Position numbers and translations under genes: made by a program. A stretch of DNA of 64,000 nt from sequence record OR999189.1. One strand, written 5' to 3'. The stretch comes from Enterobacteria phage P922. The first letter of the stretch is position 1; each line of letters opens with the position of its first letter. The notes beneath the pieces were generated by a model. It was not told the origin of the DNA and ran no database searches. It saw nothing but the letters and a program-made list of their open reading frames with translations. Below are positions 2,103 through 50,317 of this stretch, piece after piece.

Positions 2103-2905
<803 letters not shown>

Positions 2906-3377: not shown

Positions 3378-3389
3378 GGAAAAATTAAA

Positions 3390-3644
3390 ATGTATCAAGA
3401 ATTTATCGCTGAAGCAGATGCCAAAGGCCCCAAATTTAAAGTTAAAGCTTTCATTGGTGATGCCGAAGATTTTGGCTCATTAAAACGTAATGGGTATTCT
3501 TTCTCAGGCGGCAATGGTAAAGAAATAAACACCTATGCAAAACGTAGTGAAATTGCTTATGTTGTAGTAAGCCCTAAAGTAGATGTTGACGATATTGGAT
3601 ACGATTTTAACAACTTCGGAATTATTTCTGGCGGTAAAGCTTAA
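3390..3644 (+). CDS. internal protein-like small protein
   Basis: Starts MYQEFIAEA, a CTS-like motif lacking the KT dipeptide; 84 aa. Confidence 0.55.
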   Translation: MYQEFIAEADAKGPKFKVKAFIGDAEDFGSLKRNGYSFSGGNGKEINTYAKRSEIAYVVVSPKVDVDDIGYDFNNFGIISGGKA

Positions 3645-3705: not shown

Positions 3706-4281
3706 ATGAAAACGTATAAAGAATTTATCGCTGAAGCTTCTGTGGAAAAGGCCAAAGGCATTAATAAAGATGAGTGGACTTACCGAGGAAATGGTTTTGA
3801 CCCTAAAACAGCCCCTATTGAACGATACTTAGCTACAAAAGCTTCCGACTTTAAAGCTTTCGCTTGGGAAGGACTTCGCTGGTGTACTGATCTAAATATT
3901 GAAGTTGATGGGCTTAAATTTGGCCATATTCAAGATGTTGTTGCTAGTAACTTGGACGCAGCTTTTGTTAAAGCTGACGGTGACCTTCGTCGCTGGAATT
4001 TAAAATTATTCTCTAAACAGAAAGGCCCAGTGTTTGTGCCTAAAGCTGGTAAATGGGTTATTGATAATAAATTAGCTAAGGCTGTCAACTTCGCCGGTCT
4101 TGAATTTGCCAAGCACAAATCGGCATGGAAAGGTCTTGATGCAATGGCTTTCCGTAAAGAATTCGCCGAGGTTATGACTAAAGGCGGCTTTAAGGCAGAA
4201 CTAGATACCTCTAAAGGTACGTTTAAAGACGCTAATGTTCAGTATGCTTACGCCGTTGCTAATGCAGCCCGTGGTAATTAA
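3706..4281 (+). CDS. ipIII: internal protein III-like (IPIII)
   Basis: MKTYKEFIAEASVEKAKGINKDEWTYRGNGFDPKTAPIERYLATKASDFKAFAWEGLRW... resembles T4 IPIII; CTS present. Confidence 0.8.
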   Translation: MKTYKEFIAEASVEKAKGINKDEWTYRGNGFDPKTAPIERYLATKASDFKAFAWEGLRWCTDLNIEVDGLKFGHIQDVVASNLDAAFVKADGDLRRWNLKLFSKQKGPVFVPKAGKWVIDNKLAKAVNFAGLEFAKHKSAWKGLDAMAFRKEFAEVMTKGGFKAELDTSKGTFKDANVQYAYAVANAARGN

Positions 4282-14259: not shown

Positions 14260-14519
14260 CAGTTTACGTAGATGTTTTAATGAATCATGGATGGAAACTT
14301 CGCGGTCATCCAACTAAAAATTGTCATATGTTCACTGATGGAGATATTGAAGAGCTTCATGAAATGGCAGAAGCAATAGGAATGAAACGTTCTTGGTTTC
14401 AAGATAAACGCATTAAACATTATGACTTACACGCTCGGCGACGCCAAAAAGCTATAGAACTTGGCGCCGTAGAAGTATCTCGTCGCGAAGCAGTAAAAAT
14501 TTGGCAAACATTAAAATAA
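14256..14519 (+). CDS. conserved small protein (possibly DUF4031-type)
   Basis: MTVYVDVLMNHGWKLRGHPTKNCHMFTDGD...RSWFQ...HYDL pattern; assignment from memory only. Confidence 0.45.
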   Translation: MTVYVDVLMNHGWKLRGHPTKNCHMFTDGDIEELHEMAEAIGMKRSWFQDKRIKHYDLHARRRQKAIELGAVEVSRREAVKIWQTLK

Positions 14520-14522
14520 ATT

Positions 14523-14552
14523 GTTTACAGCAGGGTAGTAGTGTGATACTAT
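14523..14552 (+). promoter_or_regulatory. early promoter with inverted repeat around -10
   Basis: GTTTAC 14523-14528, 18 nt, TACTAT 14547-14552; GGGTAGTA...TACTATTACCC imperfect inverted repeat. Confidence 0.55.
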
Positions 14553-14588
14553 TACCCTATCAAAACAAATGTAAAATTGGAGAATAAA

Positions 14589-15557
14589 ATGAAAACTGTA
14601 ACTATCAATAAGGGTATCTACTTCGGTAAAGAAATCTCTGGAACTTTTGAGCTCTTAGGTGAATGGTTCCCAGATAATGCTCCGGTAGATGCACAAGGAG
14701 ATGGTAAAGTTTTTGTTGAAATTGACGGTAAGCGTCGCGGTGTTTGGGTTTACAAATCAGACATTTCATATGATGGTGTAAAAGTTGAAGAAGTTAAAGA
14801 ATCATATGAAGATATGAAAACCCGCATTAATAAAAGATTTAATGTTATGGGAATGATGACGAATGGTATTATTAACGGAAATATTCGTTCATTAATTATC
14901 TCTGGTGCGGCGGGTATTGGTAAAACGTATTCTTTAGATAAAGCTTTGAATAAAGCAAATGATAATGGATACATTGAATATAAAAGCATTAATGGTAAAA
15001 TCTCTGGTATCGGTCTTTATGAACAGCTTTGGAATAATCGTGAAGAGAATTCTGTCCTTTTGATTGATGATGTGGATGTTTTCTCTGATATGGACATTCT
15101 TAATCTTCTGAAAGCTGCTCTGGACACTGGAGAGACCCGTAAAGTCTGCTGGAGCACCGCATCTTCTTACTTAGAAGAAAAAGGCATTGAGCGTGAGTTT
15201 GAATTTAAAGGAACGATTGTTTTTATCACAAACGTTGACATTGACCGCGAATTAGACCGTGGTACTAAACTTGCTCCACATTTACAAGCATTAGTGTCCC
15301 GCTCGGTTTATTTGGATTTGGGTGTTCACACTAATGAAGAAATTATGGTCAGGGTTGAAGATGTTATTCTTTCAACTGACATGATGCAAAAGCGCGGTCT
15401 TTCTGATGAAGAAACTTATAAAGCATTATCATGGATGAAAGTTAATGTTAATCGTTTACGCAATGTTTCACTGCGTACTGCTCTTTATCTTGCTGACTTT
15501 ATTATGACCGACAAAAACGGTTGGGAAGAAATTGCTGAGGTTACTCTTCTGAAATAA
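14589..15557 (+). CDS. AAA+/P-loop ATPase
   Basis: Walker A ISGAAGIGKTYS, Walker B VLLIDDVD, sensor-like VFITN; GGAGAATAAA RBS. Confidence 0.65.
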   Translation: MKTVTINKGIYFGKEISGTFELLGEWFPDNAPVDAQGDGKVFVEIDGKRRGVWVYKSDISYDGVKVEEVKESYEDMKTRINKRFNVMGMMTNGIINGNIRSLIISGAAGIGKTYSLDKALNKANDNGYIEYKSINGKISGIGLYEQLWNNREENSVLLIDDVDVFSDMDILNLLKAALDTGETRKVCWSTASSYLEEKGIEREFEFKGTIVFITNVDIDRELDRGTKLAPHLQALVSRSVYLDLGVHTNEEIMVRVEDVILSTDMMQKRGLSDEETYKALSWMKVNVNRLRNVSLRTALYLADFIMTDKNGWEEIAEVTLLK

Positions 15558-39055: not shown

Positions 39056-41752
39056 ATGAAAGAATTTTATATCTCTATCGAAACAGTCGGAAATAATATT
39101 GTTGAGCGTTATATTGATGAAAACGGAAAGGAACGTACTCGTGAAGTAGAATATCTTCCGACTATGTTTAGGCATTGTAAGGAAGAGTCAAAGTACAAAG
39201 ACATTTACGGTAAAAATTGCGCTCCTCAAAAATTTCCATCAATGAAAGATGCACGAGATTGGATGAAACGAATGGAAGACATCGGTCTCGAAGCTCTTGG
39301 TATGAACGATTTTAAACTCGCTTATATCAGTGATACATATGGTTCAGAAATTGTTTATGACCGAAAATTTGTTCGTGTAGCTAACTGCGACATTGAGGTT
39401 ACTGGTGATAAATTTCCTGACCCAATGAAAGCAGAATATGAAATTGATGCTATCACTCATTATGATTCAATTGACGACCGTTTTTACGTCTTTGATTTGT
39501 TGAATTCAATGTACGGTTCAGTATCAAAATGGGATGCAAAGTTAGCTGCTAAGCTTGACTGTGAAGGTGGTGATGAAGTTCCTCAAGAAATTCTTGACCG
39601 AGTAATTTATATGCCATTCGATAATGAGCGTGATATGCTCATGGAATATATTAATCTCTGGGAACAGAAACGACCTGCTATTTTTACTGGTTGGAATATT
39701 GAGGGATTTGACGTTCCGTATATCATGAATCGTGTTAAAATGGTTCTCGGTGAACGCAGTATGAAACGTTTCTCTCCAATCGGTCGAGTAAAATCTAAAT
39801 TAATTCAAAATATGTACGGTAGCAAAGAAATTTATTCTATTGATGGCGTATCTATTCTTGATTATTTAGATTTGTACAAGAAATTCGCATTTACTAATTT
39901 GCCATCGTTCTCTTTGGAATCAGTTGCTCAACATGAAACCAAAAAAGGTAAATTACCGTACGATGGTCCTATTAATAAACTTCGTGAGACTAATCATCAA
40001 CGATACATTAGTTATAACATTATTGACGTAGAATCAGTTCAAGCAATTGATAAAATTCGTGGGTTTATCGATCTAGTTTTAAGTATGTCTTATTACGCTA
40101 AAATGCCTTTTTCTGGTGTAATGAGTCCTATTAAAACTTGGGATGCTATTATTTTTAACTCACTGAAAGGTGAACATAAGGTTATTCCTCAACAAGGTTC
40201 GCACGTTAAACAGAGTTTTCCAGGTGCATTTGTGTTTGAACCTAAACCGATTGCTCGTCGATACATTATGAGTTTTGACTTGACGTCTCTGTATCCTAGC
40301 ATTATTCGTCAGGTTAACATTAGTCCTGAGACTATTCGTGGGCAGTTTAAAGTTCATCCAATTCATGAATATATCGCAGGAACAGCTCCTAAGCCAAGTG
40401 ATGAATATTCTTGTTCTCCGAATGGATGGATGTATGATAAGCATCAAGAAGGTATCATTCCAAAGGAAATCGCTAAAGTATTTTTCCAACGTAAAGATTG
40501 GAAAAAGAAAATGTTCGCTGAAGAAATGAATGCCGAAGCTATTAAAAAGATTATTATGAAAGGTGCAGGGTCTTGTTCAACTAAACCAGAAGTTGAACGA
40601 TATGTTAAGTTCAATGATGATTTCTTAAATGAACTATCAAATTATACTGAATCTGTTCTTAATAGTCTGATCGAAGAATGCGAAAAAGCTGCTACACTTG
40701 CTAACACAAATCAGCTGAACCGTAAAATTCTTATTAACAGTCTTTATGGTGCTCTTGGTAATATTCATTTCCGTTACTATGATTTGCGAAATGCTACTGC
40801 TATCACAATTTTCGGTCAAGTTGGTATTCAGTGGATTGCTCGTAAAATTAATGAGTATCTAAATAAAGTGTGTGGAACTGATGGTGAAGATTTCATCGCC
40901 GCGGGTGATACTGATTCGGTATATGTTTGTGTAGATAAAGTTATTGAAAAAGTAGGTCTTGACCGCTTTAAAGAACAAAATGATTTAGTTGAATTCATGA
41001 ATCAGTTTGGTAAGAAAAAGATGGAACCTATGATTGATGTTGCATATCGTGAGTTATGTGATTATATGAATAACCGCGAGCATCTGATGCATATGGACCG
41101 TGAAGCTATTTCTTGCCCTCCGCTTGGTTCAAAGGGCGTTGGTGGATTTTGGAAAGCGAAAAAACGTTATGCTCTGAACGTTTATGATATGGAAGATAAG
41201 CGATTTGCTGAACCACATCTAAAAATCATGGGTATGGAAACTCAGCAGAGTTCAACACCAAAAGCAGTACAAGAAGCTCTCGAAGAAAGTATTCGTCGTA
41301 TTCTTCAGGAAGGCGAAGAGTCTGTCCAAGAATACTATAAGAACTTTGAGAAAGAATACCGTCAACTTGACTATAAAGTTATTGCTGAAGTAAAAACCGC
41401 GAACGATATAGCGAAATATGATGATAAAGGTTGGCCAGGGTTTAAATGCCCGTTCCATATTCGTGGTGTACTAACTTATCGTCGAGCTGTTAGTGGTTTA
41501 GGTGTAGCTCCAATTTTGGATGGAAATAAGGTAATGGTTCTTCCATTACGTGAGGGAAATCCATTTGGTGACAAGTGTATTGCTTGGCCGTCGGGCACAG
41601 AACTTCCAAAAGAAATTCGTTCTGATGTACTGTCTTGGATTGACTACTCAACTTTGTTCCAAAAATCGTTTGTTAAACCGCTTGCGGGCATGTGTGAATC
41701 GGCAGGTATGGACTATGAGGAAAAAGCTTCGTTAGACTTCCTGTTTGGCTGA
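39056..41752 (+). CDS. 43: DNA polymerase gp43 (family B)
   Basis: 898 aa; exonuclease and polymerase motifs DxxSLYPS, KILINSLYGALG, GDTDS. Confidence 0.97.
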   Translation: MKEFYISIETVGNNIVERYIDENGKERTREVEYLPTMFRHCKEESKYKDIYGKNCAPQKFPSMKDARDWMKRMEDIGLEALGMNDFKLAYISDTYGSEIVYDRKFVRVANCDIEVTGDKFPDPMKAEYEIDAITHYDSIDDRFYVFDLLNSMYGSVSKWDAKLAAKLDCEGGDEVPQEILDRVIYMPFDNERDMLMEYINLWEQKRPAIFTGWNIEGFDVPYIMNRVKMVLGERSMKRFSPIGRVKSKLIQNMYGSKEIYSIDGVSILDYLDLYKKFAFTNLPSFSLESVAQHETKKGKLPYDGPINKLRETNHQRYISYNIIDVESVQAIDKIRGFIDLVLSMSYYAKMPFSGVMSPIKTWDAIIFNSLKGEHKVIPQQGSHVKQSFPGAFVFEPKPIARRYIMSFDLTSLYPSIIRQVNISPETIRGQFKVHPIHEYIAGTAPKPSDEYSCSPNGWMYDKHQEGIIPKEIAKVFFQRKDWKKKMFAEEMNAEAIKKIIMKGAGSCSTKPEVERYVKFNDDFLNELSNYTESVLNSLIEECEKAATLANTNQLNRKILINSLYGALGNIHFRYYDLRNATAITIFGQVGIQWIARKINEYLNKVCGTDGEDFIAAGDTDSVYVCVDKVIEKVGLDRFKEQNDLVEFMNQFGKKKMEPMIDVAYRELCDYMNNREHLMHMDREAISCPPLGSKGVGGFWKAKKRYALNVYDMEDKRFAEPHLKIMGMETQQSSTPKAVQEALEESIRRILQEGEESVQEYYKNFEKEYRQLDYKVIAEVKTANDIAKYDDKGWPGFKCPFHIRGVLTYRRAVSGLGVAPILDGNKVMVLPLREGNPFGDKCIAWPSGTELPKEIRSDVLSWIDYSTLFQKSFVKPLAGMCESAGMDYEEKASLDFLFG

Positions 41753-41765
41753 TAGAATAAATCTA

Positions 41766-41787
41766 GGGACCTCCGGGTCCCTTTTTC
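41766..41787 (+). terminator. rho-independent terminator
   Basis: GGGACC-TCCG-GGTCCC then TTTTT. Confidence 0.8.
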
Positions 41788-41869
41788 ATACAAGTAATAT
41801 AAATCTATACTTAGGAAAAATAGATGATTCTGGACCTCTGGAATTCATTAAAAAATTTTTCACAAAACT

Positions 41870-47339: not shown

Positions 47340-47368
47340 TTTACAAGCTGACAAGACTATGGTATAGT
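47339..47368 (+). promoter_or_regulatory. early promoter with inverted repeat around -10
   Basis: GTTTAC 47339-47344, 18 nt, TATAGT 47363-47368; CAAGACT...AGTCTTG flanks the -10. Confidence 0.55.
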
Positions 47369-47826: not shown

Positions 47827-47856
47827 GTTTACAAGCTGATAGAGTTGTGTTATAGT
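47827..47856 (+). promoter_or_regulatory. early promoter with inverted repeat around -10
   Basis: GTTTAC 47827-47832, 18 nt, TATAGT 47851-47856; CTGATAG...CTATCAG inverted repeat. Confidence 0.55.
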
Positions 47857-48200: not shown

Positions 48201-48494
48201 ATGAAAAAATTTGTTTTTGCTGCAATTTTTGCTTTGGCTTCTTGTACTGCTCAGCCTGCTATGGCAGGTTATGATAAAGATTTGTGCGAATGGTCTATGA
48301 CTGCAGATCAGACTGAGGTTGAAACTCAGATTGAAGCAGATATTATGAATATCGTTGAGCGTGATCGCCCTGAAATGAAAGCTGAAGTACAAAAACAGCT
48401 TAAATCTGGTGGTGTAATGCAGTATAATTATGTTCTGTATTGCGATAAAAACTTCAATAATAAAAATATCATCGCTGAAGTGGTAGGTGAATAA
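48201..48494 (+). CDS. sp: Spackle-like periplasmic protein (61.3 position)
   Basis: 97 aa with signal peptide MKKFVFAAIFALASCTAQPAMA; size and position match T4 Sp. Confidence 0.65.
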   Translation: MKKFVFAAIFALASCTAQPAMAGYDKDLCEWSMTADQTEVETQIEADIMNIVERDRPEMKAEVQKQLKSGGVMQYNYVLYCDKNFNNKNIIAEVVGE

Positions 48495-49120
48495 TGCTTT
48501 ATCAAATGCACAAGTGCAAAGACACGTACAAATATAAAGGTGCCCAGTGTTATATCATTAATCGTGAAAACGCAGGTCCAGGTCATTCGCATCAATCGCG
48601 GTTTGTATTCGTTAAAAACAACGAAATTATAGCAGTTGCTAATTACATGCTTGCGACTAGTGATGTTAATCCGGTGCCTTTCACATATTATAATCTAATG
48701 GACTTGGCGTACGATTATAATTGGTTTAATCATGATAATTTGGCTCATATTGAAGGCGTAGGATTTGACATCTCTTATTCTAGTTACTCGTTGTGTCCTA
48801 TGAGCCGAGCTCATAAAGAGCCTGAATATTTTTCATTTCGTCGGCGTGTAGACTTTGAACGCAGCACAGAGTATATCGGTGGAATCTTTGTTAAAGATAA
48901 TCGAATTACTCGCATTATTTATCCTTTGGGCTGTGGTCAAAAAGATATTGATGTTGATTTAGACTTTACTGAAAACATCATTAATCATATTGCTTCTGTG
49001 TATTTTGATATTGATCATAAAATTGTAATATGTGGATATGAATTACCATCAGAAAAACAGTCTAAAGTGAATGTTTCTATTGATGACCAAATTTTTAATG
49101 CTTTTATGAATAGAGGTTAA
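48494..49120 (+). CDS. hypothetical protein (61.2 position)
   Basis: ORF track; 208 aa. Confidence 0.55.
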   Translation: MLYQMHKCKDTYKYKGAQCYIINRENAGPGHSHQSRFVFVKNNEIIAVANYMLATSDVNPVPFTYYNLMDLAYDYNWFNHDNLAHIEGVGFDISYSSYSLCPMSRAHKEPEYFSFRRRVDFERSTEYIGGIFVKDNRITRIIYPLGCGQKDIDVDLDFTENIINHIASVYFDIDHKIVICGYELPSEKQSKVNVSIDDQIFNAFMNRG

Positions 49121-49121
49121 T

Positions 49122-49286
49122 ATGAAAACATATAAAGAATTTATCAAAGAAGATATGGTCGCTGGAGATTCAGGTGGTAATCCTGAAAATATCTCTATTG
49201 GAACAACGTCAGGTGCTGTAGTAAATAAAGGTCCTGAACAGATTCCTAAAAAGAAAAAAGAGGAATCTAAAGAAAAAGAAGAGTAA
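49122..49286 (+). CDS. 54-aa protein with internal-protein-like capsid targeting sequence
   Basis: MKTYKEFIKEDMVAGDSGGNPENISIGTT...KKKKEESKEKEE; below track cut-off; AGAGG RBS. Confidence 0.45.
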   Translation: MKTYKEFIKEDMVAGDSGGNPENISIGTTSGAVVNKGPEQIPKKKKEESKEKEE

Positions 49287-49288
49287 AA

Positions 49289-50317
49289 ATGTCATCAATA
49301 CCTTGGATTGATAATGAGTTTGCATATCGTGCGTTAGCTCATTTACCTAAATTCACACAAGTAAATAATAGTTCAACTTTTAAATTACGGTTTAGATGCC
49401 CTGTTTGTGGAGATTCAAAAACCGATCAAAATAAAGCCCGTGGATGGTATTATGGTGATAACAATGAAGGAAATATTCACTGTTATAACTGTAACTATCA
49501 TGCGCCAATCGGAATATATTTAAAGGAGTTTGAACCTGATTTATATCGTGAGTATATCTTTGAAATAAGAAAAGAAAAAGGTAAAAGTCGTCCAGTAGAA
49601 AAACCTAAAGAACTTCCTAAACAACCTGAGAAGAAAATAATTAAATCTCTTCCGTCATGCATTAGATTAGATAAACTGGCGGAAGACCATCCAATTATAA
49701 AATACGTAAAAGCTCGCTGTATTCCAAAGGATAAATGGAAATATCTTTGGTTTACAACCGAATGGCCTAAATTGGTTAATAGTATAGCACCGGGAACATA
49801 TAAAAAGGAAATATCTGAGCCTCGTCTTGTTATTCCAATTTATAATGCTAATGGAAAAGCTGAGTCTTTTCAAGGACGTGCATTAAAGAAAGATGCTCCT
49901 CAAAAATATATCACCATCAAAGCTTATCCTGAGGCAACAAAAATCTATGGTGTTGAACGAGTTAAAGATGGTGATGTATATGTTTTAGAAGGACCTATAG
50001 ATTCACTTTTTATTGAAAATGGTATAGCTATTACAGGTGGTCAATTAGACCTAGAAATTGTTCCATTTAAAGATAGACGTGTGTGGGTTTTAGATAATGA
50101 ACCTCGTCATCCTGATACTATTAAACGAATGACTAAATTAGTTGATGCAGGAGAAAGGGTTATGTTTTGGGACAAATCTCCCTGGAAATCAAAAGATGTT
50201 AATGATATGATTAGAAAGGAAGGTGCAACCCCTGAACAAATTATGGAATATATGAAAAATAATATTGCGCAGGGGTTGATGGCTAAAATGCGGCTATCTA
50301 AATATGCTAAGATTTAA
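49289..50317 (+). CDS. 61: DNA primase gp61
   Basis: 342 aa; N-terminal zinc ribbon CPVCGDS...CYNCNYH. Confidence 0.93.
   Translation: MSSIPWIDNEFAYRALAHLPKFTQVNNSSTFKLRFRCPVCGDSKTDQNKARGWYYGDNNEGNIHCYNCNYHAPIGIYLKEFEPDLYREYIFEIRKEKGKSRPVEKPKELPKQPEKKIIKSLPSCIRLDKLAEDHPIIKYVKARCIPKDKWKYLWFTTEWPKLVNSIAPGTYKKEISEPRLVIPIYNANGKAESFQGRALKKDAPQKYITIKAYPEATKIYGVERVKDGDVYVLEGPIDSLFIENGIAITGGQLDLEIVPFKDRRVWVLDNEPRHPDTIKRMTKLVDAGERVMFWDKSPWKSKDVNDMIRKEGATPEQIMEYMKNNIAQGLMAKMRLSKYAKI

Follow-up and report, generated by a model that had tools for sequence, protein, structure and literature searches.

Gene 61.1 of a T4-like phage encodes a micro-protein with a capsid-targeting-type leader and a gp23-like cleavage register and N-fist

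Three putative parts of the gene 61.1 product

Here we describe a 54-codon open reading frame (ORF) located just 5′ of the primase gene 61 in a 64,000-nt stretch of DNA from Enterobacteria phage P922 (OR999189.1; this whole stretch is termed the window), a T4-like (Tequatrovirus) segment that extends from the lysozyme gene e (2139) and the internal-protein (IP) genes at 2624, ~3390 and 3706 to past gene 61. The ORF, whose product reads MKTYKEFIKEDMVAGDSGGNPENISIGTTSGAVVNKGPEQIPKKKKEESKEKEE, was identified from its sequence as the ortholog of T4 gene 61.1. The product appears to be a three-part micro-protein, composed of a 10-residue propeptide of the capsid-targeting sequence (CTS) type, a 28-residue paralog of a segment of gp23, the major capsid protein, and a lysine-rich tail. 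This combination of an IP-type leader, a gp23-type cut site with N-fist, and a Lys-rich tail suggests that gp61.1 is probably an overlooked prohead component and head-protease substrate; that it is in fact recruited to the prohead core and cut there by the prohead protease gp21 is a proposition to which we give an even chance.

Few morphogenetic pathways have been studied as thoroughly as T4 head assembly, whose inventory of core, processed and injected proteins is considered essentially complete. If prohead entry and gp21 cleavage of gp61.1 hold true, this inventory gains an extra component, and three elements hitherto viewed apart become linked: the N-fist, the CTS and the junction of the gp23 propeptide. 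The CTS is moreover in use for protein packaging and in T4-based delivery vectors. We found no paper on the function, the leader or the gp23 homology of gp61.1, earlier traces being limited to automatically assigned 'major capsid' labels and a single line of a supplementary proteomics table. The apparent novelty is a detached capsid-protein N-terminal module that carries a protease-type site. The gene is built as follows:

49113-49116 (+): Shine-Dalgarno sequence GAGG of the 54-codon ORF, 5 nt 5′ of the ATG, read directly
49122-49286 (+): 54-codon ORF, ATG start and TAA stop, read from the sequence
49122-49151 (+): codons 1-10, MKTYKEFIKE, CTS-type leader (putative propeptide) with terminal I-K-E triplet
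49149-49154 (+): predicted gp21 prohead-protease site Glu10/Asp11, from the BLASTP and hhalign register against gp23 Glu65/Ala66
49152-49235 (+): codons 11-38, DMVAGDSGGNPENISIGTTSGAVVNKGP, putative paralog of the gp23* N-fist (gp23 66-91) plus Gly92-Pro93
49236-49283 (+): codons 39-54, EQIPKKKKEESKEKEE, Lys-rich charged tail
49284-49286 (+): TAA stop, 2 nt short of the gene 61 ATG

The body of gp61.1 aligns with the gp23 maturation site and N-fist

BLASTP aligned residues 2-38 with gp23 57-93 without gaps (16/37 identities, E 3e-9), using a gp23 query sequence with 100% identity to deposited genomes. With a profile of the short-form family, hhalign extended the match to residues 1-47 against gp23 56-102 (Prob 98%, E 8.4e-14), residues 1-38 and gp23 56-93 again aligning gap-free, and the profile of the long-form family (see below) matched gp23 with E 2e-13. 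In PDB-wide profile searches with hmmsearch, gp23 and gp23* were the sole significant matches (E 5.5e-11 and 3.1e-10), residues 2-36 of the mature gp23* chain 5vf3_A aligning to profile positions 12-46. Across genera, gp61.1 and gp23 have in common the pattern xE/xx(V/I)(A/G)GDxGxxxxxIAxGxxxGA(V/I)(T/V)xxGP.

In this alignment, Glu10/Asp11 coincides with the gp23 maturation cut Glu65/Ala66, with I-K-E/D in register with L-T-E/A. T4 gp21 cuts C-terminal to Glu behind a short motif (PMC5694885) and takes the 65-residue delta-piece off gp23 at Glu65/Ala66 (PMC9546572). As the N-fist comprises gp23 residues 66-91 (PMC7136217), residues 11-36 of gp61.1 correspond to it, and by homology the gp61.1 body is paralogous to the gp23 maturation site plus N-fist. 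In the unexpanded prohead, the N-fist is disordered and lies inside, probably against the scaffold, whereas upon expansion it shifts to the outer surface; it touches four subunits and contributes to the Soc binding site (PMC9958956, PMC9546572). The wider segment of gp23 residues 66-105 is likewise disordered and inward-pointing in the prohead, with scaffold contact probable, and the gp23 mutations A66D, A94V and G97S alter head length (PMC9546572), which argues that the gp23 N-terminal segment communicates with the scaffold.

The resemblance is confined to this module. None of the HK97-fold A, P and I domains was detected in gp61.1 (54 residues, no Pfam match), which carries a Lys-rich tail where gp23 has its N-arm and, unlike gp23, is encoded by a separate early gene. 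Several records as well as UniRef label 61.1 a 'major capsid (domain-containing) protein'; these labels stem from genuine gp23 homology and are misnomers in view of the missing HK97-fold body, so that the homology explains the recurring mis-annotation of 50-160 aa proteins as 'major capsid protein'. AlphaFold2 (AF2) modelled the short form with low confidence (predicted local distance difference test score 60, predicted template modelling score 0.17) and one short helix.

When the core was compared with the cognate gp23 N-fist in five phages of different genera, identity amounted to 14-18/32 in all 25 pairings. The sum over the cognate diagonal (80) did not stand out from the permutation mean (79.6), 65 of the 120 permutations being at least as high. 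The absence of excess identity in cognate pairs indicates an old paralogy, and this permutation test led us to reject recent gene conversion or tight pairwise co-evolution of the 61.1 core and gp23. Left out of the comparison were gp23 of Vibrio PVA8 and that of Aeromonas phage 65, whose genome is rearranged and whose gp23 is not in the 112-142 kb stretch.

Two other readings of the segment were discarded. GDSGG was dismissed as a serine-protease active-site motif, the peptide being far too short and gp23 having GDHGY at that place. A mimic of the Gol/Lit type is not favoured, as the gp23 similarity stops at Pro93, before the Gol region, which we take to lie beyond this residue.

The leader meets the mapped determinants of a capsid-targeting sequence

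The preliminary description of this ORF had likened MKTYKEFIKE to the leaders of the internal proteins encoded at 2624 and 3706, and this likeness proved sound. The two comparators are:

2624-2905 (+): IPI-like internal protein gene, leader carrying KT[YF]xEF[ILV]
3706-4281 (+): IPIII-like internal protein gene, leader MKTYKEFIAE

Nine of the ten residues are identical to the leader of ORF 3706, and KT[YF]xEF[ILV] occurs in only three ORFs of the window, namely these two and the 54-codon ORF. When the first 10 residues of each of the 642 ATG-ORFs in the window (40 aa or longer) were scanned with BLOSUM62, the two IP-like ORFs reached scores of 46 and 40; the background averaged -1.6 (standard deviation 8.0), and the next best ORF scored 23. 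The chance of at least eight identities in the nine positions after Met is ~9e-10 per ORF and ~6e-7 per window. At the DNA level, 25/30 nt of the leader are identical to ORF 3706; the likeness is confined to the leader, with none upstream. Nor did the similarity turn out to be a coincidence once related phages were considered, as the motif recurs widely among short forms of the family.

For IPIII, the first 10 residues are enough for head incorporation, residues 4 and 7 acting chiefly in targeting and residues 8 and 10 in processing (PMC9026906). All four determinants are kept in the window leader (Y4, F7, I8 and E10), the Glu at the predicted cut site included, and we consider it, on its residue pattern, a genuine CTS-type sequence. 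Such a textbook leader is a trait of 61.1 in T-even phages. At the end of the gp23 propeptide (residues 56-65, AQAFGSFLTE), CTS positions 4, 7, 8 and 10 are occupied by F, F, L and E, so that one register is common to the 61.1 leader, the CTS pattern and this propeptide end.

Gene 61.1 belongs to a widespread, selected family

Window and T4 61.1 share 161/165 nt, the two products differing at two residues (Y4F and I26T, T4 residue last). The ORF therefore is the known T4 gene 61.1, and we reject the idea of a novel stray IP. The product matched phrog_1823, a family without assigned function, over its full length (residues 1-54, E 3.1e-33) and phrog_2086 over the core (E 1.5e-15). The family is thus named phrog_1823 for its short form and phrog_2086 for its long form, as well as 'T4 GC1491'; Pfam scans of short and long forms gave no match. 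By tblastn, 1,422 phage records match 61.1, from phages of Escherichia, Klebsiella, Aeromonas, Acinetobacter, Vibrio and other hosts, and 643 match the long form, while an exhaustive profile search placed the family at 52 clusters at 50% identity. Short forms of 51-62 aa occur in T4-, JS10-, RB49- and 44RR-like phages, long forms of 121-167 aa in Acinetobacter, Vibrio and RB43-like phages, in Yersinia phages TG1 and phiR1-RT and in Aeromonas phage 65.

Across ~70 members, the conserved elements are an [LIVMF]-x-E triplet, the core (x)MVAGDxGGxxxNIAxGxTxGAVxxxGP and a Lys/Arg-rich run after GP. The triplet directly precedes (x)MVAGD in nearly all members, long and short, and the basic run likewise follows GP in nearly all of them. 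Within the family, conservation peaks at residues 11-38. The body had at first been taken to be Gly/Lys/Glu-rich and of low complexity; this description fits the compositionally simple last ~12 residues, but not the conserved, gp23-homologous residues 11-38. The core has dN/dS values of 0.09-0.37 with saturated synonymous sites across seven genera, indicating purifying selection and hence a real gene.

Gene order in T4 is 41 - dmd - 61.4 - sp - 61.2 - 61.1 - 61. In all genomes examined (T4, RB49-like kvi, Aeromonas AhFM11 and 65, Acinetobacter Kimel, Vibrio PVA8, Citrobacter IME-CF2 and one metagenomic contig), 61.1 lies just 5′ of gene 61, with one small ORF between them in two phages, and the helicase gene 41 is upstream wherever it is in view. 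The placement of the window ORF just before gene 61 and outside the IP locus, as originally described, is confirmed by its coordinates and gene order; it has its own Shine-Dalgarno sequence and lies 45 kb away from the e/IP cluster.

The gene is nearly universal among non-cyanophage T4-like phages. The gp23 sequence LTE/AEIGGDHGY...NIAAGQTSGAVTxIGP is conserved in T4-, RB49-, 44RR- and RB43-like and Acinetobacter phages, and tblastn matches to the gp23 segment in Vibrio and Aeromonas phages begin at the query start. The cyanophage capsid proteins of S-CAM7 and S-RIM44 have a shorter, unrelated Gly/Ala-rich stretch at the N-fist position. No cyanophage group was among the top organisms with 61.1 matches, as against 379 Synechococcus phage records matching gp23, and one database record carries the note 'non-cyanophages only'. 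N-fist sequence and 61.1 family thus seem to co-occur, a pattern that is weak but consistent and based on two clades only.

A proposed route into the prohead

How might such a protein operate? Made from early transcripts, as are those of ipII and ipIII, gp61.1 would last until head assembly, when its leader would bring it to the prohead scaffolding core. The N-fist-like segment may add to this association, as its gp23 counterpart is located within the prohead, facing the core; binding to the acidic core is also conceivable for the basic tail. Activated gp21 would then cut after Glu10 and free a largely unstructured peptide of 44 residues and 4.6 kDa, which may stay in the head bound to DNA or the shell, exit through the capsomer pores, or be injected. 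Predicted peptide markers of gp61.1 are TYKEFIKEDMVAGDSGGNPENISIGTTSGAVVNK and, as the semi-tryptic product of the Glu10 cut, DMVAGDSGGNPENISIGTTSGAVVNK; for T4 and the window, the semi-tryptic peptide would read DMVAGDSGGNPENIS(I/T)GTTSGAVVNK and the uncut version T(Y/F)KEFIKEDMVAG....

The predicted cut would make gp61.1 resemble gp67, gp68 and the gp24 propeptide, small core components or propeptides cut by gp21 at Glu. As precursors of internal peptides, gp67 and gp68 are encoded, unlike 61.1, by late genes in the head-gene cluster and have documented core roles. From gp24, a 10-residue N-terminal piece is lost (PMC9546572).

A homolog has been found in particles. The long-form gp61.1 of Yersinia phage phiR1-RT (Gp036, 160 aa) was detected in purified particles using liquid chromatography-tandem mass spectrometry, with 9 peptides and 61.9% coverage, and tops the list of hypothetical proteins re-annotated as structural (PMC6893735 supplement). 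It is 98% identical to TG1 gp036. Together with gp61.1 of Aeromonas phage 65, these phrog_2086 proteins share with the short form the core, the [LIVMF]-x-E triplet, the basic tail and the pre-primase position.

Observations that weigh against prohead entry

Several observations weigh against this route, beginning with the particle data themselves. The phiR1-RT preparation also included DNA polymerase, thymidylate synthase and dCTPase, which makes carry-over of Gp036 possible. Of this protein, 99 residues were covered by peptides and 51 residues lie C-terminal of the putative PVLE/S site; the N-domain must thus have been there, and the coverage shows neither cleavage nor loss of this domain. 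A cut after PVLE109 predicts the semi-tryptic peptide SMVAGNASAPGTSPEHNAENIASGTTTGAVVNK.

Regarding T4 itself, gp61.1 was not detected in a time-resolved proteome of infected cells, does not appear in the portions of the text and supplements available to us from a T4 virion mass-spectrometry study, and is missing from current lists of T4 IPs. Its transcript is classed as early (PMC9697503 Table S2), and the ~40 kb upstream of 61.1 contain no TATAAATA late promoter on the + strand. The same table, however, lists the T4 ipII and ipIII transcripts as early too (PMC9697503 Table S2), so that early transcription of 61.1 is compatible with head incorporation.

The leader, moreover, is the least conserved part of the gp61.1 family. 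Many short forms start with MK(T/S)(F/Y)xEF(I/L/V), others have unrelated N-termini, and in the long forms, whose core lies at the C-terminus, a ~100-residue helical domain of no recognised fold replaces the 10-residue leader. Four IP-type ORFs of Dhakavirus JS10 have retained MKTY(K/N/Q)EFI(T/A/K)E (MKTYKEFITE, MKTYNEFIAE, MKTYQEFITE and MKTYQEFIKE), while the JS10 61.1 leader MKSFKEVMNE has F7V and I8M at mapped CTS positions. In RB49-like kvi (61.1 leader MIGFKQFVEE), only one other ORF of the genome, kvi_42, resembles it. The JS10 mismatch argues that the 61.1 leader evolves independently of the IP CTS and under less constraint. The capsid-targeting reading of the preliminary description thus stands in part: the leader has every mapped CTS determinant, but it does not define the family and, in JS10, does not co-vary with IP leaders.

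The T4-type cleavage product, finally, would be acidic overall (pI 5.0) and, at 4.6 kDa, might be small enough to escape through the 14-17 Å capsomer pores by which scaffold fragments leave the prohead (PMC9546572). No unassigned head density fitting such a peptide has been reported, save a helix under gp24* (PMC9546572). This unexplained helical density lies beneath the gp24* P domains in the map of the expanded T4 head (PMC9546572); the gp61.1 leader is predicted to be helical over residues 4-11 (AF2, low confidence), a possible fit.

Alternative functions of gp61.1

Other roles can be imagined for the same sequence features. It is possible, though in our opinion rather unlikely, that gp61.1 is an early cytoplasmic mimic of the gp23 N-terminus that never enters the head and acts in trans; its target could be a host defence sensor of capsid protein (gp61.1 serving as a decoy), the scaffold or protease (affecting timing or length) or the gp23 chaperone route. 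Such a mimic would fit the early transcripts and the lack of a nearby late promoter, the location in an early operon that has the anti-toxin gene dmd and the exclusion gene sp as neighbours, the lack of reports of T4 gp61.1 in virions, the independent drift of the leader away from the IP CTS, and a core predicted to be disordered, as expected of a binding peptide; the head-length effects of gp23 A66D, A94V and G97S (PMC9546572) point in the same direction. Yet it is not obvious why a cytoplasmic decoy should keep [LIVMF]-x-E so strictly, and exactly in register with the gp23 cleavage site, and a long-form homolog is found in particles. Unlike fast-turnover anti-defence genes, 61.1 is near-universal and fixed in position across phages of Escherichia, Vibrio, Aeromonas and Acinetobacter, and there is no co-variation between its core and the N-fist of the cognate gp23. 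We likewise deem it unlikely that gp61.1 is a free-standing, trans-acting N-fist that competes with or substitutes for the gp23 N-terminus, as a shared assembly or stability factor of non-cyanophage T4-like phages. Its site could be the prohead scaffolding core, where it would tune nucleation or head length, or those places of the expanded lattice that lack a capsomer neighbour, i.e. the five portal-facing gp23* with unanchored N-fists. As a corollary, the IP CTS would have evolved from the final ten residues of the gp23 propeptide, because both share hydrophobic4-x-x-hydrophobic7-hydrophobic8-x-Glu10.

Could gp61.1 instead be a fourth internal protein, packaged by its CTS, processed and injected along with the DNA to serve in the next host as IPI to IPIII do (anti-restriction)? 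Its leader of the MKTY(Q/K)EFIxE type with determinants 4, 7, 8 and 10 and the particle-borne homolog speak for this, as does the fact that IPs have the leader alone in common (PMC12373910), which makes any body admissible for an IP. But IPs are hypervariable accessory proteins encoded in clusters near e and 57B, whereas 61.1 is conserved, lies elsewhere and has no late promoter nearby. A conserved body homologous to a structural segment of gp23 is ill-suited to an arms-race effector, the predicted mature product would be an unstructured peptide of 44 residues, and the leader is dispensable in the wider family, the long forms lacking it altogether; we therefore judge this possibility decidedly unlikely. 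Differing from the IPs in locus, variability and leader co-evolution, gp61.1 is a member of the uncharacterised gp61.1 family; its sequence is IP-like in the leader and gp23-like in the cut site and N-fist, and yet appears to belong to neither family. An accessory factor of the primase-helicase (41/61) module, its tail binding DNA or the primosome and its gp23 resemblance a leftover, would account for the invariant place between 41 and 61, a junction with gene 61 tight enough for translational coupling, the conserved basic tail and early expression. Gene order, however, is conserved throughout the T4-like core regions, so that synteny counts for little by itself. It is the N-fist-like core and the protease-type triplet that are most strongly constrained, and nothing replication-like; there was no match to replication protein families or folds, and the homolog is found in particles. 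Such a function seems highly improbable. Finally, the ORF is very short, its protein went undetected in T4 and it resembles a gp23 fragment only, as would a non-functional remnant of a partial gene 23 duplication, or a chance ORF. This explanation is scarcely credible, being effectively refuted by selection on the core in seven genera, by family size (52 clusters) and by detection of the long form as a protein, and start, Shine-Dalgarno sequence, length class and position are all conserved as well.

Gene neighbourhood and promoter-like sites

The 54-codon ORF sits in a tightly packed operon, for which two upstream sites are candidate promoters (dmd to 61) as judged by their match to the consensus:

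47340-47368 (+): early-type sigma-70 promoter-like site TTTACA-17-TATAGT with TG, consensus scan only
47828-47856 (+): second early-type sigma-70 promoter-like site, consensus scan only
48494-49120 (+): 208-aa ORF, T4 61.2 homolog (phrog_3781, no assigned function), in the same operon
49118-49120 (+): stop of the upstream 61.2-like ORF, with 1 nt between it and the 61.1 ATG
49289-50317 (+): gene 61 (primase), directly downstream

Immediately upstream of the lysozyme gene e, and so ahead of the e/IP cluster, two TATAAATA late-promoter motifs are found at 2105-2112 and 2118-2125 (+), 13 nt apart. The whole window contains five copies of this motif compared to ~10 expected by chance. In the cluster, the start of the IPI-like ORF (2624) overlaps the end of e (2627).

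The IPII-like gene (3384-3644, +) has ATT where T4 has its ATG start, and an ATG at the T4 Thr3 codon (…AAGGAAAAATT AAA ATG TAT CAA GAA TTT ATC GCT GAA). As listed, the ORF begins MYQEFIAE, i.e. with a leader two residues shorter. Shine-Dalgarno spacing is 5 nt to ATT, the better fit, and 11 nt to ATG; this would mean that translation begins at a rare ATT start, or else that the CTS of this internal protein is truncated.

Relatives and CTS-like motifs in other phages

The N-terminal domain of the long forms yielded no functional clue, having no Pfam, PDB or informative structural match: a fold search of the PDB with the AF2 model of the long form was negative (best E 4.9), and BFVD returned only uncharacterised relatives. 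We rejected the domain as a copy of the gp23 delta-piece, as hhalign aligns the core alone. Among the BFVD matches were the much larger phage proteins A0A411BBR2 (672 aa), A0A1B1IT15 (913 aa), A0A7S5R3P1 (387 aa) and A0A6J7WVK5 (396 aa), with 21-34% identity to the long-form gp61.1 model over ~130-165 columns; in other phages, the long-form module may hence make up the N-terminus of larger proteins.

Some relatives (P0037, P0052, P0054, P0123 and P0124; 149-251 aa) carry a second CTS-like motif beyond the Lys-rich tail, e.g. NFKQFVE/G or MNEVMTFCQFQTDIKE/T (ending I-K-E or F-V-E), followed by a ~90-residue domain. By this arrangement they look like polyproteins with two protease-type sites. 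The gene of P0124 follows gene 41 and precedes a primase-sized gene on a 128.6 kb contig (3001-3720 of the contig stretch examined). In the long forms PVA8_225, P0040, P0042, P0057, P0059 and P0066, a K(T/S)(F/Y)xE(F/W)-like motif follows the K-rich run at the C-terminus, with CTS-like starts such as KKKTFDEFVKGS, KIKSFLEFDSK and KRIKTYKEWK, which may hint at an origin of the short-form leader by tandem or permuted copying of the module.

The above-mentioned kvi_42 (41561-41797, +, of the kvi stretch) is a 78-aa ORF beside uvsW that is annotated as a helicase fragment. It starts MISFKRFLVE/AAIDG, with an L-V-E triplet, and scores 31 (z ~5) against the kvi 61.1 leader, making it a candidate CTS-type protein of this RB49-like phage by sequence. 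In JS10 (EU863409.1, ~70.5-70.8 kb, - strand; 14497-14787 of the JS10 stretch examined), a 97-aa ORF starting MKTYQEFIKESTDLY is found where the record has no CDS. It lies between trna.4 and 57B, i.e. at the position of T4 ipI, and is probably an unannotated internal-protein gene.

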